The translations under genes and the position numbers were made by a program. Below the pieces are notes generated by a model that saw only the letters and a list, made by a program, of their open reading frames with translations, was not told the origin of the DNA and did not search any database. Shown here in pieces: positions 3,001-54,013 of a stretch of 64,000 nt of DNA. This DNA is from a virus. Lineage: Duplodnaviria; Caudoviricetes. The stretch lies in IMG/VR virus record IMGVR_UViG_3300032038_000068, positions 4,477 through 68,476 of that record; one strand, given 5' to 3'. Every line of letters starts with the position of its first letter. Position 1 is the stretch's first letter.

Positions 3001-4663
3001 AAACCACCTTGCTACCGTCGAACATACGATGTTGGAGATAACGTCACAGGTGTCAACCATCAGTTCGGAATACGTCTCGCAGTCAACGCTCACGCAGACC
3101 GCTGCATCAATCAACTCAAAGGTGTACGGTGGACTGGTAAACGGCGCGAACCTGCTGCTTGACTCGAAGAACCAGACATCGGGATTTGACTCCTCGCTAT
3201 CAACAGCAGCCGTTCAGGAGCAGACAAAGAAATACTTCGCATGTTTCAACTTCGGAAGTACGAAACCTGGCCCTGGTGATTCAATCATCATATCATGGCA
3301 GCAGACGAATGTGAGTGGTGCCGTTTACCGTGTAGGATTGTACGGCATTCTCCCGACGGGAAGCTACGGCACACTGAAAACAAGCGGCGACCTGACGACC
3401 ACCGCAAGCGGCTACTATGCCTACAAGGTGACATTGGATAACAACTACACCTGCTACAAGGCATATATCTACACTAAGCAGGATGCTGATAATGTTTCGT
3501 CCATCACTCAGGTCGCTTGGGCAAAAGCCGAGTTCTGCGACCAGAACGCAACGTATGAGGATGCGACAGAGTGGACTCCCGCAATCGTGGAAACGGGTAG
3601 CGAGATAAGCCAGACCGCAGACAAGATTATCATGGCTGTTGAAGGTACTGGCATCGACATCACGAATCAGCAGATTACGCTTAATGGCGATACGCAGATA
3701 AACGGTACGTTGTCCCTCTCCAATACGGGCGACGGCTTCATGCTGCGTTCGGACAGCGGTTCTGCGCTGATAACACCAGGGTCGATAGGCTCATACAGCA
3801 ACTTCAACGAGACCACCTATACAAGCACCCCGCAATACCACCAAGAAGCTGGTGGGTTCTATAAGGAGGGCAATTATTACAGGACGATACCTTACAGCAT
3901 GTATGTCAACCTCGGTACGTTCAGTTCCAACTCCGAGATAAGGGTGCAGAGCCTCACGTTCAGCCATATCGTGCTTACGGACAACTATCCTTCCGTGACA
4001 GGTACTGAGGAAGGAACAATCACATTCTATGAGGGTAGCGACGAGGAATCGTACCCACTCACAACGGGAACGACATACAGCTACACGACATCCGTCAACG
4101 GAGCATCGGTAAGCATCCGTATCTCAGGTTTCTTCAAGGTAGCATCGGGTACGACATCCTATACCCTCTTGGATTCGCTGAAATCTGGCAACATCGTGAC
4201 GATGTTCGGCTTCACACTGAGAACGCCTGTTCAGGGTGCATTTGTAAGGATTGCATCGGACGGATTCGGTGTTAACAGCGGAAACGGAAAGACCGCTTAC
4301 TTCGGTCCCGATGGTGTGCATGTGACACCGCTGTTGCAGAGCGTCAAGACCATATCCAACAGCGATGGTTCATCGTACACCGCCAATGTCACGGATGATG
4401 TGATTATCGTCACAAGAACATCTGCCACCACCGTCACCCTTCCAACGAACGGCAACATTCCTGCGGGAAAGACCATTTACATCAAGAACACTGGGTCGTC
4501 AACACTGACCATCCAAGCCATTTACGGAAGCGGAACTGGTATGCTGTGGAAGGGGAATGCAAATTCTGCGACAGGTATGGACTCGGTAGGTAACAAGATG
4601 ACCTACTACATATCATTCGATACGGGTAGCGGTATAGGATGGCTACAAGGATATTGCGGATAA
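2..4663 (+). CDS. Large modular tail fibre / receptor-binding protein, 5'-truncated by the window edge
   Basis: 1550-aa ORF whose frame is open back to base 2; Thr/Ser/Gly-rich with repeated modules (YLWNYE; W.DGIP..PRQMTD..YDVEFA; NLLLDSKNQ); precedes holin-endolysin. Confidence 0.8.
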   Translation, partial: GIAMTNATYIAKVYLWEPLVEGETYTLTFHSDNLKETDPSTGARLYSITSLSVRTRHNAYLTSSTNLLTHQSGYQVHDGNIYCLTFKCKAATNYSSPGEPNPSNAIYLQSVGFNPYTAGVCPNISWMMLTKGESGYSWQEAPQGAAHNDSPWITGVYGDKGGSITNAVLIREGSSYTDSWWQNKISDTSEITWSNAAIVNEKCRPGDMFAVQGESYQTGNKYTLYYMYTSGSGTSAKGTYVSHQVSYKGNGIVSQTEYYLISESDSGVYTDTVGWTTTMPTPTLEKPYLWNYEVTTYTEGNPKTTNPHVIYNLAQGAAGNNYISGVTNYYLAHANNTGVTRSTSGWVTDPTASAAQTSATKRYLWNYEVVEWTAPEEGRNLVTTKKADGRWNLSPLLTDDNRATVTASVKLTVPEGKTHIKFALYGKNANDQSTYSTMANVAAPAGEHTLSATFVYNFNNYTSITDFRVYCTTGANNNLALATDVDWVKLEFGSAATAYSLSPEAMKSMTDPHIISVHSIDSYKSTCFIRTNNVLTTRPTGGSYASPKPTSTITDNGVVKSWEDGIPAGEAILWATTRKFTSSGTDQDTQWSLPRQMTDTDTYDVEFALKYVVNGSEDTPPAPSANNRHKDDSPYGYSGQIWFDPVKDKYSASGVLRDFTKMYWRAELEISNGAAVGDWTILRIKGEQGNTGQSSFKSTMFVRMNSTPTKPANGKGSYSTPSPTDCLAGTNSSGTSVYWSDGIPAGTNKLWATTRIFSSDGEAPQQTSWSTPRQMTDTTTYDVEFAKKQANDATPSDPTTSPNIWYDPDTDTSQDFTKMYWRAERECVNGVWSSWTILRIKGEQGDDGDDAETYALHPVENGETCRMYYNTNTSKYVIMVALDYKVMHIVGATPTEMTSGVTVRWKFNNRADSTYTNLTYKSSKWTNYGTSAYPTTNYSPTGDLSSATTVIVQLVINNEVKDTRSVPLTFAAQAVRDTDENGRYLRDIVTGTGYEGGSLVNHLATVEHTMLEITSQVSTISSEYVSQSTLTQTAASINSKVYGGLVNGANLLLDSKNQTSGFDSSLSTAAVQEQTKKYFACFNFGSTKPGPGDSIIISWQQTNVSGAVYRVGLYGILPTGSYGTLKTSGDLTTTASGYYAYKVTLDNNYTCYKAYIYTKQDADNVSSITQVAWAKAEFCDQNATYEDATEWTPAIVETGSEISQTADKIIMAVEGTGIDITNQQITLNGDTQINGTLSLSNTGDGFMLRSDSGSALITPGSIGSYSNFNETTYTSTPQYHQEAGGFYKEGNYYRTIPYSMYVNLGTFSSNSEIRVQSLTFSHIVLTDNYPSVTGTEEGTITFYEGSDEESYPLTTGTTYSYTTSVNGASVSIRISGFFKVASGTTSYTLLDSLKSGNIVTMFGFTLRTPVQGAFVRIASDGFGVNSGNGKTAYFGPDGVHVTPLLQSVKTISNSDGSSYTANVTDDVIIVTRTSATTVTLPTNGNIPAGKTIYIKNTGSSTLTIQAIYGSGTGMLWKGNANSATGMDSVGNKMTYYISFDTGSGIGWLQGYCG

Positions 4664-4693: not shown

Positions 4694-5173
4694 ATGGTAG
4701 AACAGATTAAAGGAGTATTACTAATGGTTTTCAGCGCACTGAGCGGTTTCTTCATGCCGATACAAGACCTCATGCTTGCAATACTGATATTGCTCGGTGT
4801 GAACTTCTTGTCAGGGTGGATTGAAGATTCCATTCATGCCGATGGATGGAAGTGGAAAAAGGCATTCAAGGCATTCTATGAGTGCTGTATCTTATGTGGC
4901 ATCGGTGCATTCATCTTCATCATGGGTCACTACATGCACAAGCAGGATGCAAGCGTCCAGTGCCTTACCGCCATCTACTTCGCAGCCATTTGGTTCTACA
5001 GCGTGAACATCCTCGGGAATTGGAAGAAGATCCTCGTCAAGGGTACGACCATCTACCGCTTCATCAACTTCCTGCACTGGCTTGTCAGTATGAAGTTTGT
5101 GGAGAAGATTCCGTACCTGAGTGAGTTTATCAACAACGGAGAAGGAGGGGAAAATGAAGGTAACAAAGAGTGA
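4694..5173 (+). CDS. Holin
   Basis: 159 aa with several hydrophobic segments and a charged C-terminus, overlapping the endolysin start. Confidence 0.75.
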   Translation: MVEQIKGVLLMVFSALSGFFMPIQDLMLAILILLGVNFLSGWIEDSIHADGWKWKKAFKAFYECCILCGIGAFIFIMGHYMHKQDASVQCLTAIYFAAIWFYSVNILGNWKKILVKGTTIYRFINFLHWLVSMKFVEKIPYLSEFINNGEGGENEGNKE

Positions 5174-5780
5174 ACTGCTGCGCATCTGCCCGAACTACCC
5201 TGCTGACAGGATAGATACCGATGTGGTGGTGTTGAACGCTTGGATGGAGCCGTTCGGTATTACTACGGCATTGCGGTTTGCGCATTTCATCAGCCAACTT
5301 GCTTTCGAGAGTAATCAGTTCAGGTCTTTGGAGGAAAACCTCAACTATTCTGCCGACAGGTTGTTGCAGGTCTTCCCGAAGTATTTCAAGGACAGGGCAA
5401 CGGCTGAGAGGTACGCACGTCATCCCGAGATGATAGCCAACAGGGTCTATGCGAACCGAATGGGTAACGGAGATGAGGCATCGGGCGATGGGTGGAAATA
5501 CCGTGGACGAGGCTATATCCAACTGACGGGAAAGCAGAACTATTTGGCATACGAAACAAGTGGTTTCTGCAACGGACATCTTACGGCACATCCCGAATGG
5601 CTTGTCAAGAGTCCAGGAAGGATCAAGAGTGCGCTATGGTTTTGGTACAAGAGCGGATGCAACAAACTCGCTGATGCCGATGACATACGCACCATCACTC
5701 AGAGAATTAACGGTGGTATGAACGGTTTTGCCGACCGACAATACTACTTACGGAGAGCAAAGAGAGTAATGTTCATTTAA
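5154..5780 (+). CDS. Endolysin, glycoside hydrolase family 19
   Basis: HFISQLAFES, EENLNYS and GDGWKYRGRGYIQLTG motifs typical of phage GH19; likely start ATG 5154 (MKVTKSELL). Confidence 0.9.
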   Translation: MKVTKSELLRICPNYPADRIDTDVVVLNAWMEPFGITTALRFAHFISQLAFESNQFRSLEENLNYSADRLLQVFPKYFKDRATAERYARHPEMIANRVYANRMGNGDEASGDGWKYRGRGYIQLTGKQNYLAYETSGFCNGHLTAHPEWLVKSPGRIKSALWFWYKSGCNKLADADDIRTITQRINGGMNGFADRQYYLRRAKRVMFI

Positions 5781-5791
5781 CACAATAATAT

Positions 5792-7474
5792 ATGGAAGAG
5801 AACAAAATACTTGCATACGTTCGGGGGAATGATGTACTGTTCATAGTTTCAGTGACCACCCCTGAGATTGATGGGGAAGGACAGCCCATAGAGGACAGTT
5901 ACGTTCCCGTTGACTTCACTGGGTGGGATGACTATTCCCTCCGTGTGGTCAAGCAGGGAGTGACGAGAACCATCGTTGCCGAGAGCAGTCAGCTTGTCGA
6001 GGGAGAGGACGGAAAGATTGTTGTCGATGTTCCCTACACTGCACAATGCGGAACCTACTCGCTTGAACTTGTCGGCAGGCAGAACGGCCGTCATGAGCGT
6101 TCATACGAAATCATGATGTTCGCTATCGTCGAGAGCAACGACAAGGCGAACCTTATCTATGAAGTCATTGACGGTTACAAGTCAACCGACTTGGATATTA
6201 CCGTTCAGATGGTGTCTTCCGCATTGGTCTATGGAGAGAATGCCTATCAGATGTGGAAGCATCTCCCTGGCAACGAGGACAAGACCTTGCAGGACTACAT
6301 TGACGAGGTGTTAGACCTTGCATCAATGACGCAGGAATGCGCTGACATTATTGAGAATGCCAAGCCAGACTTGATATATGAGGACAACTACGTTTACCGT
6401 TGGAATCCTGTAACCCACGCCTACGCCAAGACAAACATATATGTGAAAGGCGATCAGGGTGAGCAAGGAGAACAAGGCATTCAGGGAATCCAAGGCGTCC
6501 AAGGTATTCAAGGTGAGCGCGGTCTGCAAGGAGAACGTGGCGAGAAAGGCGATGATGGTGTAGGAATATCAGGAATCGAGTTTGAGGAAACGGATCAAGA
6601 CGGTAACAATGTGTATAACATCTACACCACGGATGAAAATTCCTATCAGCTTGTGTCGCCAAGAGGTCCGTCTGGTCAGGATGGTCAGGACGGAACGGAT
6701 GGTGCGCCTGGTCTTCCTGGTGCAGACGGTCAGGATGGCATTACCCCGCATATTGATGTCACTACGGGTAATTGGTTCGTAGGAAGCACCGATACGGGTA
6801 TTCATGCTCAGGGACAGCAGGGTATTCAAGGCCCCGCAGGTCAGGACGGACAGGACGGACAGAATGGTACTAACGGTACTAACGGTGTGGATGGTATCAC
6901 TCCGCATATCGACTCTACCAATAAACATTGGATGATAGGTACCGAGGACACTGGAATTGTAGCCGAGGGTCAAGATGGCCGTGACGGTACCAATGGAACC
7001 AATGGCACAAACGGAACAGATGGCGCAGACGGTATTACTCCCCATATAGACAGCACCACAGGTAACTGGTTCATCGGTGATGAGAATACAGGTGTTCATG
7101 CTCAGGGACCACAAGGTGTTCCTGGTACTACTCCTGACATCAGTGGCAAGGAAGACAAGTTAGCAATAGACTCTACCGCAAAGACGGCATCATTCACGGC
7201 AAGCGTAGGAAACTACTACAAAGTGAACATTGCTGCAAGTGGTAGTATTACCATCACTCTCACAACACCTACTGACAGCACCCATGTAAGCAGTGCGGTG
7301 TTTTTTGTGACAACTTCTACAAGTCCTGCATTGACCTTTTCGGCAGCAAGCGGAGTTACCGTTTATAAGGCATCTTCTTACTCCATTGAGGCAAGCAAGG
7401 TATATGAAGTCAATGCCCTTTGGAATGGCATTGCGTGGAGTATTGCAAGTGTAGAACTTGAAGCACAATCATAG
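5792..7474 (+). CDS. Collagen-like tail fibre / appendage protein
   Basis: Gly-X-Y runs and three DGITPHID.T...W..G..DTG..A.G repeats; globular N- and C-terminal domains. Confidence 0.8.
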   Translation: MEENKILAYVRGNDVLFIVSVTTPEIDGEGQPIEDSYVPVDFTGWDDYSLRVVKQGVTRTIVAESSQLVEGEDGKIVVDVPYTAQCGTYSLELVGRQNGRHERSYEIMMFAIVESNDKANLIYEVIDGYKSTDLDITVQMVSSALVYGENAYQMWKHLPGNEDKTLQDYIDEVLDLASMTQECADIIENAKPDLIYEDNYVYRWNPVTHAYAKTNIYVKGDQGEQGEQGIQGIQGVQGIQGERGLQGERGEKGDDGVGISGIEFEETDQDGNNVYNIYTTDENSYQLVSPRGPSGQDGQDGTDGAPGLPGADGQDGITPHIDVTTGNWFVGSTDTGIHAQGQQGIQGPAGQDGQDGQNGTNGTNGVDGITPHIDSTNKHWMIGTEDTGIVAEGQDGRDGTNGTNGTNGTDGADGITPHIDSTTGNWFIGDENTGVHAQGPQGVPGTTPDISGKEDKLAIDSTAKTASFTASVGNYYKVNIAASGSITITLTTPTDSTHVSSAVFFVTTSTSPALTFSAASGVTVYKASSYSIEASKVYEVNALWNGIAWSIASVELEAQS

Positions 7475-7486
7475 AAAGGAGGCATT

Positions 7487-8671
7487 ATGATTGCAGTGAA
7501 TAGACGAAGGTATATGGGTGGTGGAGGCGATATTGATTGGAGTAAGCAATACCTCACATTTGAAGCGTTGGAAGATGGTACTTTCAAGCATAATTCCGAT
7601 GCTTTGGAATATTCTCTTGATGGGGGCAGCACTTGGGTTTCACTTGCTGCAAATACAGATACACCCACTATTTCAGCAGGTAATACTATCCTGTGGAGAG
7701 GCAATATGTCTGTGGGTGGTAATACAAGGTATTTTGTTTCAACAGGAAAATTCAATGCAAGCGGCAATCCACTTAGCTTGAAAAATGGAGATAACTTTAT
7801 TAACGCGAATCCTGTCGCAAATAATTTTTACTTCCTGTTCTACAACTGCACAGGACTTGTAAGCGCAAAGAATGTCATTATACCTTCGAATATTTCGGGA
7901 AAGAATAGTATATGCGGTTCCATGTTCAGAGGTTGCACATCACTTGTAGAAGCTCCTGAACTTCCTGCTACAACACTAAGCTCTTCTTGCTACAACTATA
8001 TGTTTTACGGTTGCACTTCATTGATTGTTGCTCCAGAATTACCAGCCACAACATTGGTAGGCAACTGTTACGATAATATGTTCTATGGCTGCACATCGCT
8101 AACAACAGCACCACCAAAACTACCCGCTGTAACATTGCAGAATGCTTGCTATTCAAACATGTTCAGAAATTGTACGTCATTAACAACACCTCCACAAACA
8201 TTACCAGCTACAACATTAAAATCACAATGTTACCAATACATGTTTATGGGCTGCACATCTTTGACCACGACTCCAACTATGGCACCGACCATATTGGCAA
8301 ATAAGTGCTGTCAAGGAATGTTCTCAGGTTGCACCTCATTGGAAAATGTGATGCTCACTCTTCCTGCAACTACGCTTGAATCGTCTTGCTATTATGCTAT
8401 GTTTGTAAACACAAAAATAGCAACTGCGCCATACTTGCCTGCAACTACGCTTGTTACAGATTGCTATGGAATGCTGTTTGATGGGTGCTCCAAATTGAAT
8501 TACATAAAGGCAATGTTTACAACGACTCCAGGAACAAGTTATACAGTAAACTGGGTAAGAAATGTACCTTCTGGTGGTACATTTGTAAAGAACTCGGCAG
8601 CAACTTGGGCAGACACATTTGGAAATAACGCTATACCTACTGGCTGGACTGTTGAAACCGCATCATCTTAA
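7487..8671 (+). CDS. BspA-like leucine-rich-repeat protein
   Basis: Tandem CY..MF.GCTSL..AP.LPATTL repeats; C-terminal IPTGWTV. Confidence 0.8.
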   Translation: MIAVNRRRYMGGGGDIDWSKQYLTFEALEDGTFKHNSDALEYSLDGGSTWVSLAANTDTPTISAGNTILWRGNMSVGGNTRYFVSTGKFNASGNPLSLKNGDNFINANPVANNFYFLFYNCTGLVSAKNVIIPSNISGKNSICGSMFRGCTSLVEAPELPATTLSSSCYNYMFYGCTSLIVAPELPATTLVGNCYDNMFYGCTSLTTAPPKLPAVTLQNACYSNMFRNCTSLTTPPQTLPATTLKSQCYQYMFMGCTSLTTTPTMAPTILANKCCQGMFSGCTSLENVMLTLPATTLESSCYYAMFVNTKIATAPYLPATTLVTDCYGMLFDGCSKLNYIKAMFTTTPGTSYTVNWVRNVPSGGTFVKNSAATWADTFGNNAIPTGWTVETASS

Positions 8672-9747: not shown

Positions 9748-10233
9748 ATGGAAGTATTACTTGCTTTATTATCGTTTATGGTTGCAGGATGTTATATCGG
9801 ACATTTCTGCATCGTGAAGAAGGGTGCGCCCGAGTCTATCAGTTCGCTTGTCTATGGGATGCAACACAAGTGGCTGTGGAGTGTATGGATTGTTGCAGTG
9901 GGTATGCTGCTGTTCCCTCGGCTGATGACCAAGATGCCTGAGATGTGGCAGTTCGTTGGTTTTTTGATGATCCTCGCACTTATCGGTACTGCACTCACTC
10001 CTTTGTTTGTTACTGAGAAGAGAACGGCTCATTACATCATCGGCAGCATTCTCGGCTTGCTTGTACTGGCTTGTGTGTATATCATCTCTCCGTGGTGGCT
10101 GTTGGTACTAATCCCCGTAGTTCCATTGACGGGAATGTCTATGTCGGATGATTGTCCCCAGTGGCTTGACGGAAAGATTCTCTTCTTTGCCGAATTAGCC
10201 TGTTTAATCGCTCTCTACGGCTCTCTGATATGA
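9748..10233 (+). CDS. Multi-pass membrane protein
   Basis: 161 aa, about six hydrophobic segments. Confidence 0.75.
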   Translation: MEVLLALLSFMVAGCYIGHFCIVKKGAPESISSLVYGMQHKWLWSVWIVAVGMLLFPRLMTKMPEMWQFVGFLMILALIGTALTPLFVTEKRTAHYIIGSILGLLVLACVYIISPWWLLVLIPVVPLTGMSMSDDCPQWLDGKILFFAELACLIALYGSLI

Positions 10234-10700
10234 AAAAGGTATTACCATGCCTCCTGTGCCTTTTGACAGGCGCAGCGATAGGTTATTTCAGCCACAGGAC
10301 ACCGAAGGTCAATACGGTCATCAAGACGAAGACCGATACCTTGGTAGTTGAGCATACCGACACCATGCCGATAGTCAAGACGGAGAAGGTGTTGAAGTAT
10401 GTCTATGTGGGTGGTGATACTATCTACGGGAGCGATACTATTATCGTGCGTGACTCTATTCCTGTTCCGATAACGCAGGAGGAATATCAGGACTCTCTCT
10501 ATCACGCATGGGTGAGCGGTTATCTGCCGAACCTCGACTCTATCAAGGTTAAAGAGCGCATCGTCACGAACACCGTAACCATTACCAATACAATCAAGCG
10601 TAAGTGGAACATCGGTGTGACGGGTGGTTACGGCTACGGATTCGTAAGTGGAAAGATTGAACCATTCGTAGGAATTGGTATTAACTATAATTTGAGATAA
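10230..10700 (+). CDS. Spanin-like lysis accessory protein (DUF6808-like)
   Basis: N-terminal hydrophobic anchor, DT/DS-rich middle, C-terminal amphipathic beta strands (WNIGVTGGYGY...GIGINYNL); last gene of the late operon. Confidence 0.5.
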   Translation: MKKVLPCLLCLLTGAAIGYFSHRTPKVNTVIKTKTDTLVVEHTDTMPIVKTEKVLKYVYVGGDTIYGSDTIIVRDSIPVPITQEEYQDSLYHAWVSGYLPNLDSIKVKERIVTNTVTITNTIKRKWNIGVTGGYGYGFVSGKIEPFVGIGINYNLR

Positions 10701-44486: not shown

Positions 44487-44599
44487 TATCTTTGGGGGCA
44501 AAGATAGAAAAAAAATGCATTATTTTTAAGAAAATGTGCAGAAAATTTAATCTAAAATTTGCGTATATTGAAAATTTTGCTATTTTTGGCGCAAAAATA
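44487..44599. promoter_or_regulatory. Divergent late promoter region with back-to-back -7 elements
   Basis: TATCTTTG-GGGG-CAAAGATA 44487-44506; TATTTTTG-GCG-CAAAAATA 44581-44599 with TTTG 19 nt upstream. Confidence 0.7.
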
Positions 44600-49010: not shown

Positions 49011-49041
49011 GGGGGTGGGTGTATGCCCTACCCCCTTTATT
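49011..49041 (+). terminator. Intrinsic terminator after tail tube gene
   Basis: GGGGGTGGG-TGTATG-CCCTACCCCC-TTTATT. Confidence 0.7.
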
Positions 49042-49050
49042 GTTTTACAT

Positions 49051-49584
49051 ATGAAGAAAAAAGGAAAAGTCCTCAACGAGGCAACTAACGAAGACCAGCG
49101 GATGTTGAAGTCCGTCACGAAGAACTATGCGGATGTCGTGGAGGTCAGGGGAAGGAAGTTCAAGGTCAAGTGGATGCACCCGGCAACGGCAGACATGATC
49201 ACATGCCTAATGCTGAAGAAAGGGAACGATAGCAAGATTCTCTCCCAAGGTGCTGCACTGATTGTGCTGAACGGTTTTTGGAAGAGTCACCTCTTCTATT
49301 GGCTACTGTGGAGATGGTTCTACTACATCAAGCAGTACAACAGCGAGGAACTTACTCCCTTGTTCGAGATGGCTCAAAAAAAAACTCAACAGCATCAGGT
49401 AACGGCTTACTTGAACGCTACAATATTGTTGACCGCGTTAAACGACGCAAAGAAAACGATGACGAAGGAGGAAGCCGAGCGTACCCTTCGCGCACTCAGT
49501 ACGGCCAACGCTGGGAAATCGCCCAGAAGCACGGAATCGACACCGGGCCGCTCAAGTTCCTCGGAATCCCCATCAGCGGGATGA
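49051..49584 (+). CDS. Tail assembly chaperone (G-like)
   Basis: After tail tube; start ATG 49051; contains A9 slippery run at 49376-49384. Confidence 0.75.
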   Translation: MKKKGKVLNEATNEDQRMLKSVTKNYADVVEVRGRKFKVKWMHPATADMITCLMLKKGNDSKILSQGAALIVLNGFWKSHLFYWLLWRWFYYIKQYNSEELTPLFEMAQKKTQQHQVTAYLNATILLTALNDAKKTMTKEEAERTLRALSTANAGKSPRSTESTPGRSSSSESPSAG

Positions 49585-49850
49585 TGTACTACATGAACTG
49601 GGTGCTTACGAATGCGCAGATTGAACTGCTCACTGCAGATGTCAGCGTCATTGATTACGGAAGGACTAAGAAGAACAGGAAGAAGTACGATTTTGATGAC
49701 ACCGATGCGGATGAGAATCAGGTCAAGAAGGCTGGTCAGGACTGGATAGAGAGATACGGAACGGAAGAAGGTGCAGGCACGAACCTTACGTTGAATGACA
49801 TCTTCCGTGGCGGTAATATAAATGCCGATGTTGGTGTTAAACTTGGTTAG
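49051..49850 (+). CDS. Tail assembly chaperone frameshift product (GT-like, -1 shift near 49377-49383)
   Basis: The -1 frame is open across the A9 run to 49850; lambda G/GT paradigm. Confidence 0.7.
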
Positions 49851-49854
49851 AGAT

Positions 49855-50382
49855 ATGAATGATACGAACACTTTATTGATAAGGAAGGGTGATGACGGTG
49901 AGGTTGTCAACACCTATACCGAATGGGGCATCGTGTGCGCCAAGGTGCCGTTCAGGGCAGGTGGCACTACGAAGAAACTTGCCACGCGTGATTGGCCTGA
50001 TGAGAACGGAACGGACACGTTCATACCGACTCGGTTGTGTATGGAATCATATGATGCTGAGTTCGAGTTCGCATACAAAGGTGAGGAACTTGCTATAAAC
50101 ATCATGAATCTCAGTATGGCACTCACGCAGATAGATGCCTTCAAGAAATGGCTCACTGGAAATGACGGTCAGTCGGATGAAGGCACTGGTGCAGACCTTA
50201 CTATCTACTCCCCGTTCAGCACGATTGGTCGCAAAGGATGTTACCTTGTAAGCATCAGCGATGAAGAGCCTTGCGTGATTGCGAAAGGCAGGGGTACTGA
50301 CATTTACAATGAGAATGTCGTGACCTTCAAGGCAACATTCAAGGTCACCGACCCGGTCACCAACGTAACGCTTACTGAGTGA
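49855..50382 (+). CDS. Distal-tail-like structural protein
   Basis: Tail cluster; start MNDTNT. Confidence 0.5.
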   Translation: MNDTNTLLIRKGDDGEVVNTYTEWGIVCAKVPFRAGGTTKKLATRDWPDENGTDTFIPTRLCMESYDAEFEFAYKGEELAINIMNLSMALTQIDAFKKWLTGNDGQSDEGTGADLTIYSPFSTIGRKGCYLVSISDEEPCVIAKGRGTDIYNENVVTFKATFKVTDPVTNVTLTE

Positions 50383-50903
50383 TGGCTGACAACGCAAAGG
50401 TTCTTGACAACGGATTTGCAAAGGGTCTTGAGATGATTCAGGATCACCTTGTAAACTCGCTCATCCAGTCGGTGAAACAGCTCCTTGATGAACTTCCGAG
50501 GAAGAAGGGATATTTCGGTTTTACCGGGCAGACGCAGACATCATACATGGGAGGTGTCTATGTCAATGGGAGCCTGCGCTACATTATAGGTCAGCAAGTA
50601 TGGACTATAAGGCCGAGAAGGGGAAAGATACCTAAGGGCAAGACTGCGTTTTTGAAGAACCCTTATGAAGGAGAGGAACGTGCAGTACATGGCGAGGTTG
50701 ACATCAGCAACCCGAGCGGTCGGCAGACATCCCTCAATTTCCTTCAAGGCTATAGGGCGCAGGCAAAAGGTCTTACGGTTGTCATCACTACGGGTACTGA
50801 GTATTCCGAATTCCTTGAAACCATCAAGGGGATGGATGTACTTACAAGGACGTTCACCGATGCTCCTAAAGTCCTGAACTCAAACTGGAAACCTATACCA
50901 TGA
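50382..50903 (+). CDS. Tail completion / neck protein (HK97 gp10-like position)
   Basis: TGQTQTS, VITTGTEYSEFLE..G.DVL. Confidence 0.55.
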   Translation: MADNAKVLDNGFAKGLEMIQDHLVNSLIQSVKQLLDELPRKKGYFGFTGQTQTSYMGGVYVNGSLRYIIGQQVWTIRPRRGKIPKGKTAFLKNPYEGEERAVHGEVDISNPSGRQTSLNFLQGYRAQAKGLTVVITTGTEYSEFLETIKGMDVLTRTFTDAPKVLNSNWKPIP

Positions 50904-51078: not shown

Positions 51079-51324
51079 ATGAAAGTTTACGAATTTTTAT
51101 CTTTACACAAGGAATTTTTGAAAATGCTGCACAGTTTCGGCATCAGTTTTGACGATTGCAAGTGGGTGGAACTTTACCACGAATACAAGAAAATGAAGGA
51201 TATGGATCACAAGATGGTCTATATCGTTGCTTTTCTTTCGGAAAAGTATGAGATATGTGAAAGAAAAGTGTATAAAATCATCAAGTCTATGGAACGTGAC
51301 TGCATGATTGATGCAGTGGGATAA
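51079..51324 (+). CDS. Small HTH-like protein
   Basis: IVAFLSEKYEICERKVYKIIK HTH-like C-terminus. Confidence 0.7.
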   Translation: MKVYEFLSLHKEFLKMLHSFGISFDDCKWVELYHEYKKMKDMDHKMVYIVAFLSEKYEICERKVYKIIKSMERDCMIDAVG

Positions 51325-51334
51325 GCCGTAAATG

Positions 51335-51390
51335 TTTGGATTTTGTTTGTGTGGGAACTATCTTTGCCAGTGTCAAAGCGCGATGACACA
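51335..51390 (+). promoter_or_regulatory. Promoter of the Gly-rich coiled-coil operon, with downstream palindrome
   Basis: TTTG 51335-51338, 20 nt spacer, TATCTTTG 51359-51366; GTGTCA-N8-TGACAC just downstream. Confidence 0.7.
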
Positions 51391-51426
51391 GTAAACCCTA
51401 TTATTAACATCACAAACACAAATTTT

Positions 51427-52377
51427 ATGGCAGAGATTTATTCAATCCCCGAATCATCCGCAAGCACTCCGCAGTTCACCATCCCTATCGGTGGAATGGG
51501 TGGAGGCGGTTTGTTCGGGAACGGCAACAACACCATCGGTGAACTTATCGGCCTTGCTATCGTTGCATCCATCTTCGGATGGGGTGGTAACGGGTTCGGC
51601 GGCTTCGGTGGCGGCAACGCAGGAGGCGCAGGTTTCCTCAGTAACCAAATCAGTAACGACTCGGGTCGTGAGCTTATCATGAACGCTATCAACTCACAGG
51701 GTGAGGCACAGCGTACAGCCGTTCAGACCCTCAGTTCGATGCTCGGTCAGGACTTCTCACTCGTCAACACGCAGATTCAGGGCATTCAGAACGCACTGAA
51801 CACAATCGGTGCCAACCAGGGCTTGAACGCATTGCAGGTCATCAACGCAATCCAGAGCGGAGATGCCAACCTCGCGGCTCAGTTCCAAAGCTGCTGCTGC
51901 CAGAACCAGTTGGCATTGAGCCAGGGTTTCTCGGGTGTTCAGCAGAGTCTTGCATCCAAGGCTGCAGCAGACCAGCTGGCAACATGTCAGCAGACATATG
52001 CCCTCACCGATGCGATGAACCGCAACTACGTTGCTCTTGACAACAAGATTGACGCACTCGAGTCAGACCGCAAGAACCGTGAGATTACGGCTCTTACCGC
52101 ACAGGTGCAGAAGCTGGAGTCCGAGAAGTATTCCGCAAGCCTTGTTCAGCAGGCAGTATCTCCCGTATTGGCTCAGTTGGCAGGTATCCAGAACGAGGTT
52201 GAGTCCATCAAGAGATGCCAGCCGCCCACCGTCACACTTCCGAACAACCAGTACACGGCTGTTCCTACGCTCTATGCGAACATCGGTGCTGACTTTGTTG
52301 CATCGTATTGGGCTAACCGACTCAGTGCAGCCACAACGCCCGCAACTGATGCAGCCGCAGGAGGTGGCGCAGCATAG
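51427..52377 (+). CDS. Gly-rich membrane segment plus long coiled-coil protein with CCC motif
   Basis: GELIGLAIVASIFGWGGNGFGG, QSCCCQ, Gln/Ala-rich heptads; start ATG 51427. Confidence 0.8.
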   Translation: MAEIYSIPESSASTPQFTIPIGGMGGGGLFGNGNNTIGELIGLAIVASIFGWGGNGFGGFGGGNAGGAGFLSNQISNDSGRELIMNAINSQGEAQRTAVQTLSSMLGQDFSLVNTQIQGIQNALNTIGANQGLNALQVINAIQSGDANLAAQFQSCCCQNQLALSQGFSGVQQSLASKAAADQLATCQQTYALTDAMNRNYVALDNKIDALESDRKNREITALTAQVQKLESEKYSASLVQQAVSPVLAQLAGIQNEVESIKRCQPPTVTLPNNQYTAVPTLYANIGADFVASYWANRLSAATTPATDAAAGGGAA

Positions 52378-52413
52378 TAATCAGAGAGTATCACTAATTA
52401 AAAAGTTAAAACT

Positions 52414-52917
52414 ATGGATTTCAATGCTTTGGGCGAAAGCAGCCCGATTTATGTCATTCGCAAGAAACCGTTTGAGTTCCTTACGGGAACGCTGAAATCG
52501 AAGGTTCAGAAACAGCCTTCCAATCCCTACATGCCACAGCCTACACCCCAACCGATAGACATCGTTGTGAATGTAGGTGGTAGTGACGAGACCGTTCCGA
52601 ACGTACCTGTAGGAATGGAGGTGGTCGAGTACAAGGGTTCATACTATAGCACGACATCCGAAGGTGCGCAGCAAGCCATCTCGGGACTGATGCAGATAGG
52701 ACGTGACGGACTTGACAACCAACAGTATTTCCGTTCGCTCATAGAAGAGGGTGAGAAAGCCATTGAAGGCATCAATCCTCAGTATGCAGAGGGTAAGCGT
52801 CAGGCGCGTGTAGTCAAGGAACTACAGGAACGTGCGGATGCGCAGGACAGGAAACTCGATGAGATACTGTCCTTCATGCGTGAGCTGTCGGGTTCGCCCA
52901 AAGACAAGAATCCCTAA
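52414..52917 (+). CDS. Hypothetical protein with C-terminal coiled coil
   Basis: ORF track; same operon. Confidence 0.8.
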   Translation: MDFNALGESSPIYVIRKKPFEFLTGTLKSKVQKQPSNPYMPQPTPQPIDIVVNVGGSDETVPNVPVGMEVVEYKGSYYSTTSEGAQQAISGLMQIGRDGLDNQQYFRSLIEEGEKAIEGINPQYAEGKRQARVVKELQERADAQDRKLDEILSFMRELSGSPKDKNP

Positions 52918-52928
52918 ACACTACGACT

Positions 52929-53120
52929 ATGATTATTATCAAGGACGAAGGCAAGGAGCAGATGCGCTCCAATATGCGTGAGGAGATGCGTCACGGATTC
53001 CGTGGAGGCGCACGAATGAGAGATGAGGAATCGTACAAGGAAGGGTACAAAAACGGATGGGAGGATGCAGAAGATGAGCATTACCGTCGCACCCGTGACT
53101 CCCGTGGAAGGTACATGTAA
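52929..53120 (+). CDS. Small Arg/Glu-rich protein
   Basis: Ends RRTRDSRGRYM. Confidence 0.75.
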   Translation: MIIIKDEGKEQMRSNMREEMRHGFRGGARMRDEESYKEGYKNGWEDAEDEHYRRTRDSRGRYM

Positions 53121-53127
53121 TTAACCG

Positions 53128-53165
53128 AAGGGCGGATAGAAGGACGACTTTTTATCTGCCCTTTC
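53128..53165 (+). terminator. Terminator-like hairpin inside the six-gene operon
   Basis: AAGGGCGGATAGAAGG-ACGA-CTTTTTATCTGCCCTT-TCT. Confidence 0.55.
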
Positions 53166-53180
53166 TAAAAAGGAAGGAAT

Positions 53181-53579
53181 ATGAAATACATAATGACAGA
53201 GGAAGAGGCGATATACATGCAGACCTATCAAGGTCATTTCTCGAGGAAACTGGCTGCATGGGCTATCTCAAACATGGAGATGAAAGACCCTGCAACGGGT
53301 ACGATGAAACGTGTGTCTATACGTTCGGCAGATGACGTATCGGAGATACTGAGGGCTAACGGAGTCAAGATACCAGAGGAGAGTAGGTATGACAGTTGGT
53401 ACGTTTTTATGATGTCGGTGGCTGATTACCCGAAGACACTCACAACTGACGAGATGCGTTCAAGCTACGTTGAGGAAACGATATGCGACCCCGATGGAAA
53501 CAGCGGAGATGTGCTTGCGTGTTTCGCAGCAAAGATGTGTAACGCAGGCATCCCTATCCATTGGGAAATGCTCATCTGA
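53181..53579 (+). CDS. Hypothetical protein
   Basis: HFSRKLAAWAISNM..; acidic D.DG near C-terminus. Confidence 0.75.
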   Translation: MKYIMTEEEAIYMQTYQGHFSRKLAAWAISNMEMKDPATGTMKRVSIRSADDVSEILRANGVKIPEESRYDSWYVFMMSVADYPKTLTTDEMRSSYVEETICDPDGNSGDVLACFAAKMCNAGIPIHWEMLI

Positions 53580-53585
53580 TAGCCT

Positions 53586-53981
53586 ATGCAGACCGATTAC
53601 TTGGACGTTGCAGGCAAATGGGGCATTGTCCTGTGCCACGACCTCAGAAGGCTCGATGAGTATGAGATGAGGCAGATGATGATGGCATTCGGCATGCACG
53701 GTGAGAGGATTGACAGGGCGATAGACGTTCTGCTATTCCATGAGAACACGGGTATGTGCATCAGCCGCCCAGGAATCCGCATGAGCCTTGTCTTCATAGG
53801 TGATGCAGATTCTCCCGAGCAGTGGTGGGACACTCTCGCCCATGAAGTCCTCGACCATGTGAAGGTCGATATTGCAAGTTACTACTATGTTCCGTGGAGG
53901 AGCGAGGACTCGGCATGGCTTACGGGCTATCTTATGCGTAAGTTGGTAAGGCTGTACGGAGAGCCTTGCAGTGAAGGATAG
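53586..53981 (+). CDS. Putative zinc metallopeptidase-like protein
   Basis: TLAHEVLDH plus downstream SEDSAWL.GY. Confidence 0.55.
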   Translation: MQTDYLDVAGKWGIVLCHDLRRLDEYEMRQMMMAFGMHGERIDRAIDVLLFHENTGMCISRPGIRMSLVFIGDADSPEQWWDTLAHEVLDHVKVDIASYYYVPWRSEDSAWLTGYLMRKLVRLYGEPCSEG

Positions 53982-54013
53982 GGACTGGCAACAATGTCAG
54001 TCCTTATTTTTTT

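Follow-up and report, generated by a model that had tools for sequence, protein, structure and literature searches.

Do the six genes at 51079-53981 of this phage, which directly precede the gene of the tape measure protein, form part of the tail, or do they constitute an accessory unit with a role of its own, and which process could such a unit serve? The preliminary description of the window (i.e. the whole stretch of 64,000 nucleotides that was analysed) had regarded them as a self-contained operon inserted in the tail cluster and encoding an undescribed system.

Layout and control of the cassette

An ORF check of the window established that all six ORFs are real and lie on the plus strand (span 51079-53981), as had been proposed, and the promoter, operator-like palindrome and terminator expected of a self-contained unit are all present:

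51079-51324, plus strand: g1, 81 aa, probable small HTH-type regulator
51335-51366, plus strand: Bacteroides-type promoter for g2-g6 (-33 TTTG, -7 TATCTTTG)
51370-51389, plus strand: operator-like palindrome, GTGTCA-AAGCGCGA-TGACAC
51427-52377, plus strand: g2, 316 aa, lead protein
52414-52917, plus strand: g3, 167 aa
52929-53120, plus strand: g4, 63 aa, peptide rich in Arg, Gly, Tyr, Glu and Asp, C-terminus RRTRDSRGRYM
53181-53579, plus strand: g5, 132 aa, DUF7841 helical protein
53586-53981, plus strand: g6, 131 aa, standalone mini-zincin-like protein, HEVLDH plus E107
53976-54013, plus strand: predicted intrinsic terminator at the cassette end, 15-bp hairpin followed by a U7 run

The start of g2 was placed at 51427 (MAEIY), in line with an alignment in which the homologues all open with MAE, MAD or MSE. 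A longer, TTG-started ORF from 51343 was rejected: it would overrun the promoter, and the homologue starts favour 51427. The cassette has the same orientation as the late genes. Its downstream neighbour indeed encodes the tape measure protein (phrog_9959, E 9e-40); the two genes upstream gave no family match. In related phages, homologues of these two occupy places amid the head-tail joining genes and behind the tape measure gene.

The claim of a consensus promoter holds: the sequence at 51335-51366 (TTTG-N20-TATCTTTG) is a perfect consensus match and is one of seven occurrences of TTTG-N17-23-TAnnTTTG in the window, where chance would give 1.5. Perfect-consensus matches of the same class occur at 44558 and 59781, where the head and tail-tip operons had been placed. 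The -7 box recurs at a distance of 40-90 nt before the g2 ATG in 16 of the 19 loci with a g1-type gene and in all eight loci with UB, a different HTH gene. As read from the sequence, the palindrome (GTGTCA-N8-TGACAC) begins 3 nt after the -7 box; its RNA would fold at -7.3 kcal/mol (z -2.3). Of the 19 g1-type loci, 12 carry TGTCA-N8-9-TGACA behind the -7 box, as against none of the 25 others, and TAACCGGTTA takes its place in five of the eight UB loci. Because the operator sequence switches with the type of HTH gene upstream, g1 is probably a regulator, which bears out the earlier pairing of an HTH regulator with an operator. The gene is located immediately upstream of g2 in 19 non-redundant loci, belongs to phrog_17790 (E 1e-25) and shows a weak similarity to the HTH portion of Mor-family proteins (E 0.007, under Pfam's cut-off); most likely, its product controls the g2-g6 promoter via the palindrome abutting the -7 box. 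At the other end, the strong predicted terminator (dG -20 kcal/mol, z -6.8; an equally good fold in 0 of 200 shuffles) would insulate the cassette from the tape measure gene.

Conservation and insertion of the cassette

The preliminary description mentioned similar gene strings in other gut phages, and correctly so: a synteny comparison shows the genes together and in the same order, g1-g2-(gX)-g3-g4-g5-g6, in some 40 other loci with unrelated flanks. Carriers include the crAss-like Suoliviridae, Steigviridae and Intestiviridae, as well as prophages, the latter restricted to Bacteroidales genomes (all 15 genome hits being Bacteroidales metagenome assemblies); in at least six prophages the cassette lies between the late genes and the integrase. 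The cultured phages that matched in the g2-family searches comprise only one Bacteroides phage and four Parabacteroides phages; Bacteroides phage C3_41T2LP, with B. uniformis as host, is a cultured carrier. The cassette is among the most widespread conserved gene sets lacking a function in gut Bacteroidales phages and, as a compact and self-regulated unit, it is open to direct study by deletion or heterologous expression.

That the cassette was inserted into the tail cluster is borne out by 12 related phages with homologous head-tail genes, in which the tape measure gene directly follows a chaperone-like gene; in nine related phages, the window included, the cassette is situated between the two. 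Since relatives that share these head-tail genes do without it, the cassette can be viewed as an accessory, moron-like insertion and not as part of the tail. Ordinary tail assembly or completion genes of this phage, as the site between tail genes and tape measure would suggest, are therefore extremely improbable: apart from the 12 phages that join tape measure and chaperone-like gene directly, the cassette also occurs in non-tail contexts (in podoviruses and beside integrases), has its own promoter and terminator, and holds no protein (g1-g6) with a match to a 'tail' PHROG. The preliminary description had itself named ordinary virion tail components as the outcome that would speak against its proposal, and the 12 relatives contradict that outcome. 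We consider it highly probable that the locus is a horizontally mobile, self-regulated accessory operon, i.e. a moron-like multi-gene cassette that is specific to Bacteroidales phages.

The morons of lambdoid phages (e.g. HK97 gp15; PMC3594210) likewise have their own promoter and terminator, form independent units between late genes, and are distributed patchily among related phages as a result of horizontal movement. HK97 gp15-type morons consist of one gene, whereas the cassette has six to seven with a dedicated regulator and operator, and it is conserved in virulent phages (the crAss-like ones) too. A search of g1-g6, gX, UA and UB against the PADLOC-DB 2.0 defence models yielded nothing at E up to 0.1 and so lends no support to the earlier suggestion of a defence, dormancy or filament system. 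More generally, the cassette has no functional Pfam, PADLOC or NCBIfam family and no solved relative, and no described system matching it was found in the literature searched. The claim that the system is undescribed thus stands.

The cassette proteins

The lead protein, g2, belongs to phrog_16490 (E 6e-28) and has at least 4,154 homologues (E up to 0.001), none of these with a Pfam family or a name beyond 'hypothetical protein'. It consists successively of a Gly-rich N-terminal part, a short hydrophobic helix (LIGLAIVASIFGW) with glycines on both flanks, a highly conserved region, a CCC motif (C156-C158, invariant in 16 aligned homologues) and a variable heptad-like region, and contains Gly/Phe/Asn repeats. 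The Gly-flanked segment and the CCC motif had thus been recognized correctly. Of the long coiled coil noted with them, the heptad-like sequence stands but the matches to coiled-coil families are weak; taken together, these two indications make the variable region probably a coiled coil. According to the alignment, the N-terminal half hardly varies, even between phages whose capsids and tails are unrelated. Most homologues end in a Gly/Tyr/Phe tail and some variants in a Cys-rich tail; the window's variant lacks a Gly/Tyr tail and has an Ala/Thr/Pro-rich one. The type of tail tracks the presence of gX, a beta-rich protein encoded between g2 and g3 in the loci that carry it, with zero exceptions among full-length loci.

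The proposed pore-former-like role of g2 gains no firm support from its sequence. With a hydrophobic core of just 13 residues, the segment scores +4.0 to +6.6 kcal/mol on the Hessa hydrophobicity scale (insertion energy summed over a 19-residue stretch; +4.0 for g2 of the window), compared with +1.4 for the phage's holin-like protein, and the ~39-40 residues on its N-terminal side hold no Lys or Arg; by these sequence measures, g2 is not a confident membrane protein. Nor does g2 fit a holin, which is small and strongly hydrophobic: it has 316 aa and no 19-residue window at a Kyte-Doolittle value of 1.6 or more. We also considered and rejected a class I viral fusion protein: the best match, HA2, is insignificant (E 0.22), and the C-terminal tail, either Gly/Tyr/Phe or Ala/Thr/Pro, has no hydrophobic span.

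Every full-length cassette contains g3 (phrog_28898, E 8e-7), whose N-terminal part is likely beta-rich and whose C-terminal part is likely helical. The small Arg-rich peptide (RRTRDSRGRY) of the preliminary description is g4, which is rich in Arg, Gly and Tyr, and the crAss-like Suoliviridae encode a fusion in which the g5-like domain carries a g4-like tail at its C-terminus (L003, 5129-5734; L027, 4126-4752). The 'conserved-looking helical protein' proved to be a member of PF25223 (DUF7841; E 3e-11, over Pfam's cut-off) and of phrog_38431, namely g5; its AlphaFold2 model (pLDDT 91.7) is mostly helical and has no significant match among solved structures.

The metallopeptidase-like character noted for g6 is well founded, in that H86, E87, H91 and E107 (H86-E87-x3-H91 plus E107) are invariant across 18 homologues. 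Most homologues have HExxH; the window shares HExxxH with L005, L006 and L025, three relatives that are among its closest. In the AlphaFold2 model (pLDDT 94.7), beta strands precede two helices; the motif belongs to helix 77-99, and E107 opens helix 107-124, so that g6, judged from sequence and model, looks like a metallopeptidase with an HExxH-type motif on one helix and a third-ligand Glu on the next. In a Foldseek search of BFVD (predicted viral protein structures), the fold matched A0A8S5SM26, a 'PolyVal Metallopeptidase superfamily domain' protein (E 1.6e-8, TM-score 0.79/0.69, 24% identity), and the homologue in phage C3_41T2LP is annotated likewise. Matches to the PDB were weak throughout: E at least 0.2 with Foldseek (M61 peptidase; IrrE, E 0.26), Z at most 4.7 with VIA-align (oligopeptidase Z 4.4, lethal factor Z 3.5), and E 0.69 for a neutral metalloprotease in a profile search of PDB sequences. 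Like MPTase-PolyVal (PMC5512222), g6 combines HExxH, here as HExxxH, with a downstream Glu and a predicted order of strands before two helices, and HExxxH variants have been described for the zincins of polyvalent proteins, a class linked to phage-host conflict (Iyer et al. 2017, PMC5512222). It differs in being a standalone protein of ~130 aa: among the best 150 of 1,133 cluster representatives, nearly all measure ~100-180 aa (the longest 218 aa) and none forms part of a large multidomain (polyvalent) protein. Pfam does not recognize it either (at E up to 1, no family for the window protein and none common to more than two of the 18 homologues).

HTH repressors paired with zincins are known from ImmR/ImmA and DdrO/IrrE, in which, as in the cassette, an HTH regulator, a palindromic operator and a small HExxH protein occur in one unit; in addition, IrrE is among the weak fold hits of g6. 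In the cassette, by contrast, g1 and g6 are five genes apart, there is no match to Peptidase_M78, and g1 is not of the Xre type by any model tested. That g6 might cleave g1 is speculation.

Candidate functions

A rather unlikely reading is that of a conflict module carried as a moron. Driven by its own promoter, in lysogens or in the course of infection, it would block competing phages or host immunity by superinfection exclusion, abortive infection or anti-defence, with g6 as effector or processing protease. This reading would agree with the moron architecture (a host-type promoter and a terminator within the late operon), with the presence of the cassette in some close relatives and its absence from others, with its variable position, often beside the integrase at a prophage end, and with the fold match of g6 to a protein named for the PolyVal metallopeptidases, a class tied to phage-host conflict (PMC5512222). 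However, no PADLOC model matches any part, the cassette is co-oriented with the late and not with the early genes, and g6 is standalone rather than in a polyvalent protein (best 150 of 1,133 representatives); moreover, the same five to seven genes are kept in fixed order in thousands of phages of unrelated morphotypes, virulent crAss-like phages included, whereas conflict islands usually turn over. A module of this kind would very commonly determine how phages compete in the gut.

Accessory virion proteins, either a coiled-coil fibre or decoration that the virion can do without (g2, tipped by gX) or DNA-packed ejection proteins (basic g4, protease g6), are quite improbable. The cassette does lie beside the tape measure gene in one phage lineage, the g2 tail tracks the beta-rich gX, Cys-rich proteins would suit the disulfide-rich crAss virions (PMC10172136), and polyvalent-protein zincins have been proposed to process packaged proteins (PMC5512222). 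In crAss records, furthermore, g2 is labelled 'outer capsid protein/viral fiber' or 'spike protein', but these labels stem from insignificant coiled-coil matches (the best found being influenza HA2, E 0.22). Because its N-terminal half is nearly invariant across unrelated capsids and tails, g2 has no conserved virion docking partner beyond the cassette; related phages also make tails without the cassette, and structural genes seldom have a repressor-type operator of their own. More doubtful still, and in our view very unlikely, is a self-assembling material (a condensate, hydrogel or cross-linked matrix of g4 and the GLFG/GFGG-type and Gly/Tyr tails of g2) that would form an intracellular compartment or be released upon lysis. 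The Gly/Phe/Asn repeats and usual Gly/Tyr/Phe tail of g2, its Cys-rich tails in some variants, the Arg/Gly/Tyr-rich g4 and a perfect-consensus promoter that hints at high expression all fit such a material; against it, composition is its sole basis, with no homology or structural support, and the g2 of the window has no Gly/Tyr tail.

The reading that we tentatively favour, while holding it to be short of probable, is that of a late-made cassette with a role at the cell envelope, in lysis timing or in envelope breakdown and virion release. The proximity to lysis genes is a new point that the preliminary description had not considered. A holin-, endolysin- or LysB-like homologue is found within 2.5 kb of the cassette in 19 of 45 loci, four of which were counted on the putative UA alone (holin-like in shape, a small protein predicted to have three membrane helices, which accompanies the cassette in at least nine loci). 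Four types of endolysin are involved (GH19, L,D-carboxypeptidase, amidase and B124-14-type peptidase), and the lysis-adjacent arrangements therefore arose independently. In crAss records the cassette directly follows annotated holin, LysB-like and endolysin genes, and in Parabacteroides phage PD691P3 a g3 homologue beside a g5-like gene lies just upstream of holin and endolysin, i.e. immediately before the holin, amidase and LysB-like genes. Such neighbours hint at a late role, near lysis. On the other hand, unrelated morons, too, classically gather at late-operon ends beside lysis genes and att/int, and in the window ~15 kb separate the cassette from the holin-like gene (4694-5173) and GH19 endolysin (together 4694-5780) that the phage itself encodes; both points count against a link to lysis. 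The PhiCrAss001 record is not among the matches of two g2-family searches (28 and 33 matching phage records) and few cultured phages match; therefore, the cassette is not required for lysis generally.

Phage lysis accessory proteins are exemplified by the T4 holin T with its antiholins RI and RIII and by the spanins Rz/Rz1. With these the cassette shares its frequent place beside holin and endolysin genes, a hydrophobic helix near the N-terminus of g2 followed by a long probable coiled coil with conserved cysteines, and partners of g2 that lack signal peptides and are presumed cytoplasmic. It differs in showing no sequence or fold similarity to them, and the g2 helix is too weakly hydrophobic for a confident membrane span. 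The translations, as read, contain no signal peptide or lipobox, which leaves periplasmic action unsupported, and a spanin-type lipoprotein partner (a signal peptide with lipobox) is likewise missing among the cassette proteins; there is no muralytic domain in the cassette, and its carriers already have separate holin-, endolysin- and LysB-like genes.

Under the envelope reading, the late-made cassette would act at the end of infection by setting the timing of lysis or by aiding breakdown and release. The short Gly-flanked helix, which may be likened to a SAR (signal-arrest-release) domain or a fusion peptide, would attach g2 weakly to the cytoplasmic membrane, while its probable coiled coil would provide a scaffold for g3 and g4/g5, both presumed cytoplasmic, and in most relatives its Gly/Tyr/Phe tail would also bind gX; the zincin g6 would process one cassette component or the regulator. 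It is possible, if rather unlikely, that a membrane-associated g2 together with gX, g3, g4/g5 and g6 makes up a new self-regulated system of Bacteroidales phages, the abundant crAss-like ones among them, that controls the last step of infection (timing of lysis, or envelope disruption and release) by a mechanism unrelated to holins, antiholins, spanins and disruptins. If the cassette does govern lysis or release, it would help to explain how Bacteroides phages exit their hosts; we know of no spanin-type outer-membrane step defined for these phages. Either way, whether envelope or conflict module, DUF7841 and four unannotated PHROG families acquire working hypotheses. The parts of the cassette are also linked internally, by the g5-g4 fusion in Suoliviridae and by the association of the g2 tail type with gX.

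The cassette and its setting in the late gene region

A six-gene operon had been described at window 51079-53981 in the preliminary description, and six co-directional open reading frames (ORFs) are present there exactly as claimed, upstream of a gene encoding the tape measure protein (phrog_9959, E 9e-40). The start of the second gene was placed at the ATG at 51427 (MAEIY...), because every aligned homologue begins with MAE, MAD or MSE; a TTG-extended ORF from 51343 was rejected, since it would run across the promoter.

Features of the cassette and of the lysis genes of the phage (window coordinates)
51079-51324, + strand: g1, phrog_17790, weak match to a Mor-type HTH
51335-51366, between g1 and g2: Bacteroides-type promoter TTTG-N20-TATCTTTG (pattern match)
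3 bases past the -7 box: palindrome GTGTCA-N8-TGACAC
51427-52377, + strand: g2
52414-52917, + strand: g3, N-terminal part beta-rich-looking and C-terminal part helical-looking by sequence
52929-53120, + strand: g4, Arg/Gly/Tyr/acidic peptide of 63 aa with the conserved end RRxRDSRGRY
53181-53579, + strand: g5, DUF7841 (Pfam, E 3e-11)
53586-53981, + strand: g6, mini-zincin-like protein
directly 3' of the g6 stop: terminator hairpin, 15 bp followed by U7 (dG -20 kcal/mol, z -6.8)
4694-5173: holin-like protein with 3-4 predicted membrane helices, overlapping the endolysin gene
5121-5780: GH19-type endolysin (phrog_181, E 6e-76)

The source phage (a record of 68.5 kb in IMG/VR) is probably temperate, given its two integrase-family genes along with a portal, a large terminase and a primase gene; at blastn sensitivity the window DNA yielded no match among phage records. 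Relatives were sought via the chaperone-like gene upstream of the cassette (49045-49584). Among these, twelve with homologous genes for capsid, connector and tail (L051, L053-L057, L059-L062, L065 and L066) have no cassette, their tape measure gene lying 250-750 nt past the chaperone-like gene; the cassette occupies this site in the window, in L063 and L064, and in L005-L008, L012 and L025, which had been found earlier. As it is present or absent among relatives and has a private promoter and terminator, the cassette is, as far as sequence can define one, a moron, i.e. an accessory transcription unit among phage late genes. The same observations exclude that these are ordinary virion tail components, an outcome that had been named as fatal to the earlier reading: the cassette is not a tail component.

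Several features of the surrounding region deserve mention. An ORF in the -1 frame (49278-49850) overlaps the chaperone-like ORF (49015/49045-49584), and the two have the look of a tail chaperone frameshift pair of the G/GT type. The heptamer GGGAAAT at 49513 was rejected as the slippery site for the -1 shift because it is out of register, and a search of the pair (49015-49850) for a correctly framed heptamer found none. Two genes, u1 and u2 (49822-50903), separate the chaperone-like gene from the cassette. In related phages (L051 and L053-L055) they are located elsewhere, u2 with the genes of the head-tail connector and u1 past the tape measure gene; by these positions, the late gene order is rearranged in the lineage of the window. 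Repeats occur in genes of the tail-fibre region downstream, of the collagen triple-helix type at 5792-7474 (E 1e-15) and of the BspA leucine-rich type at 7487-8671 (E 1e-10).

Conservation, mobility and control

Homologues of g2 number at least 4,154 in a metagenome protein collection (E up to 0.001), without a Pfam domain and without any name beyond 'hypothetical protein'. For comparison, 22 viral and 15 genome contigs obtained via g2, together with annotated phage records, were scanned with HMMs built on the proteins of the window and on homologues of these. Co-occurrence in other genomes, proposed earlier as a check, is borne out: the order (g1)-g2-(gX)-g3-g4-g5-g6 was recovered in essentially every full-length locus, where gX, absent from the window, stands for a beta-rich protein (phrog_31654) of about 113 aa. 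The cassette has very different neighbours from locus to locus. In the lineage of the window these are tail genes, whereas Bacteroides phage C3_41T2LP, which is cultured on B. uniformis MB20-41, has it among replication genes; in the crAss-like Suoliviridae, Steigviridae and Intestiviridae the neighbours are genes for lysis and the virion, and in at least six prophages an integrase stands immediately 3' of it. All 15 g2 hits in a collection of species-representative genomes are Bacteroidales metagenome assemblies (Prevotella, Bacteroidaceae, Muribaculaceae, Paludibacteraceae and Porphyromonadaceae).

Individual loci show further variation. The Steigviridae phage cr116_1 (L028) carries two g6-like zincins, one 5' of g2 (4267-4614) and the other at the end of the cassette (6847-7242), and g5 was not detected in it; on this evidence the composition of the cassette is modular. 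Within the cassettes of L025 (6931-7566) and L033 (9317-9925), the g2-gX or the gX-g3 interval holds a gene of about 200 aa in opposite orientation; judging from their translations, these genes look like homing endonucleases. Stop-codon recoding occurs in some crAss-like phages, and in cr109_1 (L003) the g2 homologue (5767-6750) is interrupted by in-frame stops under the standard code, as are the neighbouring lysis genes, which would fit a cassette read within a recoded late gene set. Homologues of g2 (phrog_16490) also occur in Caudoviricetes sp. vir215 (NC_092586.1, 4878-5759) and in vir335, near a reverse transcriptase and an integrase; the records give Methanomassiliicoccales (archaea) as host, an assignment that may be wrong, since all genome hits of g2 are Bacteroidales.

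Across the 64 kb of the window the promoter pattern has 7 matches, where 1.5 would be expected by chance; two of the others, at 44558 and 59781, were assigned on sequence reading to the head and tail-tip operons. In 16 of the 19 non-redundant loci with g1, and in all 8 with UB, an alternative HTH gene upstream of g2, a -7 box is found 40-90 nt 5' of the g2 ATG. The palindrome TGTCA-N8-9-TGACA follows the -7 box in 12/19 g1-type loci and in 0/25 others (non-redundant loci), and TAACCGGTTA stands at the equivalent place in 5/8 UB-type loci. Since the type of palindrome follows the type of HTH gene, the upstream HTH protein is very likely the regulator of the cassette. Several of the palindromes compared have no spacer, so that a protein operator would fit better than an RNA hairpin, and its position over the transcription start suggests repression.

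The cassette proteins

Searches for known functions returned little. Pfam recognized DUF7841 in g5 and nothing else among g1-g6, the PHROGs families matched are all of unknown function, and PADLOC and NCBIfam gave no meaningful match for the cassette proteins. Profiles of g2, gX, g3, g5 and g6 found nothing below E 0.009 among the sequences of solved structures, the best match being that of RecX to a partial stretch of g5, and in the ESM Atlas g2 and g3 fell into unnamed viral clusters only. Literature searches on the cassette, the g5 family, the carrier phage, crAss lysis and Bacteroides morons retrieved no paper on the cassette. Beyond a generic zincin signature and an HTH, its proteins match no characterised family, and its gene set matches no described system.

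Alignment divides g2 into five regions, i.e. a conserved N-terminus (MAEIYxLP), Gly-rich repeats around a nearly invariant helix (DLFGLAIIASMFGW), a highly conserved stretch (FLSNQLNNDSGRELIMNAI...), an invariant CCC, and a variable heptad-like region with the tail. The helix is short and weakly hydrophobic (summed Hessa energy +4 to +6.6 kcal/mol over 19 residues, compared with +1.4 for the holin-like protein of the phage), and the 40 residues N-terminal to it contain no Lys or Arg; membrane insertion is therefore possible, though not predicted with confidence. The tail reads TPYxGG...Gly/Tyr/Phe...F in every full-length locus with gX and is Ala/Thr/Pro-rich in every locus without it (the window, L005, L030, L031 and L034), and this dependence on gX argues for a contact between the two. 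Fused or longer forms of g2 were searched for and none were found. A type IV pilin-like leader (too long and acidic, with the Glu misplaced), a double-glycine bacteriocin leader (misfit in spacing, no transporter) and gX as an Ena-like pilus subunit (N-terminal Cys not conserved) were all rejected.

A g4-like tail is fused onto a g5-like domain in Suoliviridae, from which g4 and g5 are predicted to work together. The AlphaFold2 model of g5 is confident (pLDDT 91.7) and mostly helical, and had no PDB match that reached Foldseek E 0.001 or VIA-align Z 5. Proteases of the CE clan (Ulp1/SENP-type) ranked highest, with Z up to 4.4; a protease reading of g5 was not accepted, as neither a His nor a Cys is invariant in it. 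The crAss label 'sigma factor/ubiquitin-like' was set aside too (sigma-factor region 2, Z below 3), as was an EF-hand in the DPDG loop, whose position 12 is not Glu. Longer forms of g5 are limited to two rare chimeras, in which the C-terminal part is unrelated, and profile comparison of g5 with g6 revealed no relationship.

In g6, H86, E87, H91 and E107 are invariant across 17 homologues, most of which have HExxH; HExxxH is found in the window and its close relatives L005, L006 and L025. The confident AlphaFold2 model (pLDDT 94.7) places the motif on helix 77-99, with E107 opening the next helix. No Pfam model recognises g6, and its zincin matches among solved structures are weak (the PDB has none that reaches Foldseek E 0.001 or VIA-align Z 5). 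In BFVD it clearly matches a 'PolyVal Metallopeptidase superfamily domain' protein (E 1.6e-8, TM-score 0.79) and, more weakly, many small uncharacterised phage proteins. HExxxH variants are described in the PolyVal class (Iyer et al. 2017); unlike the domains of that class, g6 is standalone, and among the best 150 of 1,133 cluster representatives nearly all homologues are about 100-180 aa and none is a fusion.

Lysis genes and the possible role of the cassette

Gene neighbourhood is the sole functional evidence for the cassette. With 13 holin, endolysin and LysB-like seed proteins from cassette loci, such a gene was found within 2.5 kb of the cassette in 19 of 45 loci, involving four unrelated endolysin types; four of these 19 depend solely on UA, which accompanies the cassette and is a small protein predicted to have three membrane helices. 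In crAss records the cassette directly follows annotated holin, LysB-like and endolysin genes, and Parabacteroides phage PD691P3 has g3-like and g5-like genes alone, immediately 5' of a holin, an amidase and a LysB-like gene. This neighbourhood leads us to favour, tentatively and at less than even confidence, a late function that would be tied to the envelope or to lysis. The caveats are substantial: the holin-like and GH19 endolysin genes of the phage itself (4694-5780) lie about 15 kb downstream of the cassette, carriers already have complete-looking lysis sets, a signal peptide is absent from every cassette protein, and late-operon ends are favoured insertion sites of morons in general.

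A conflict module is a doubtful though serious alternative. That the cassette encodes accessory virion proteins is improbable: the N-terminal half of g2 is near-invariant across phages with unrelated particles, which suggests that its partners are host proteins or other proteins of the cassette, and the 'spike/fiber' labels in crAss records rest on an insignificant coiled-coil similarity (the g2 profile against HA2, E 0.22). A self-assembling material is very improbable. Beyond its holin-like and endolysin genes, the phage encodes a multi-pass membrane protein at 9748-10233 and, at 10230-10700, a DUF6808 protein whose N-terminus is signal- or lipoprotein-like; both could be further lysis or envelope genes.
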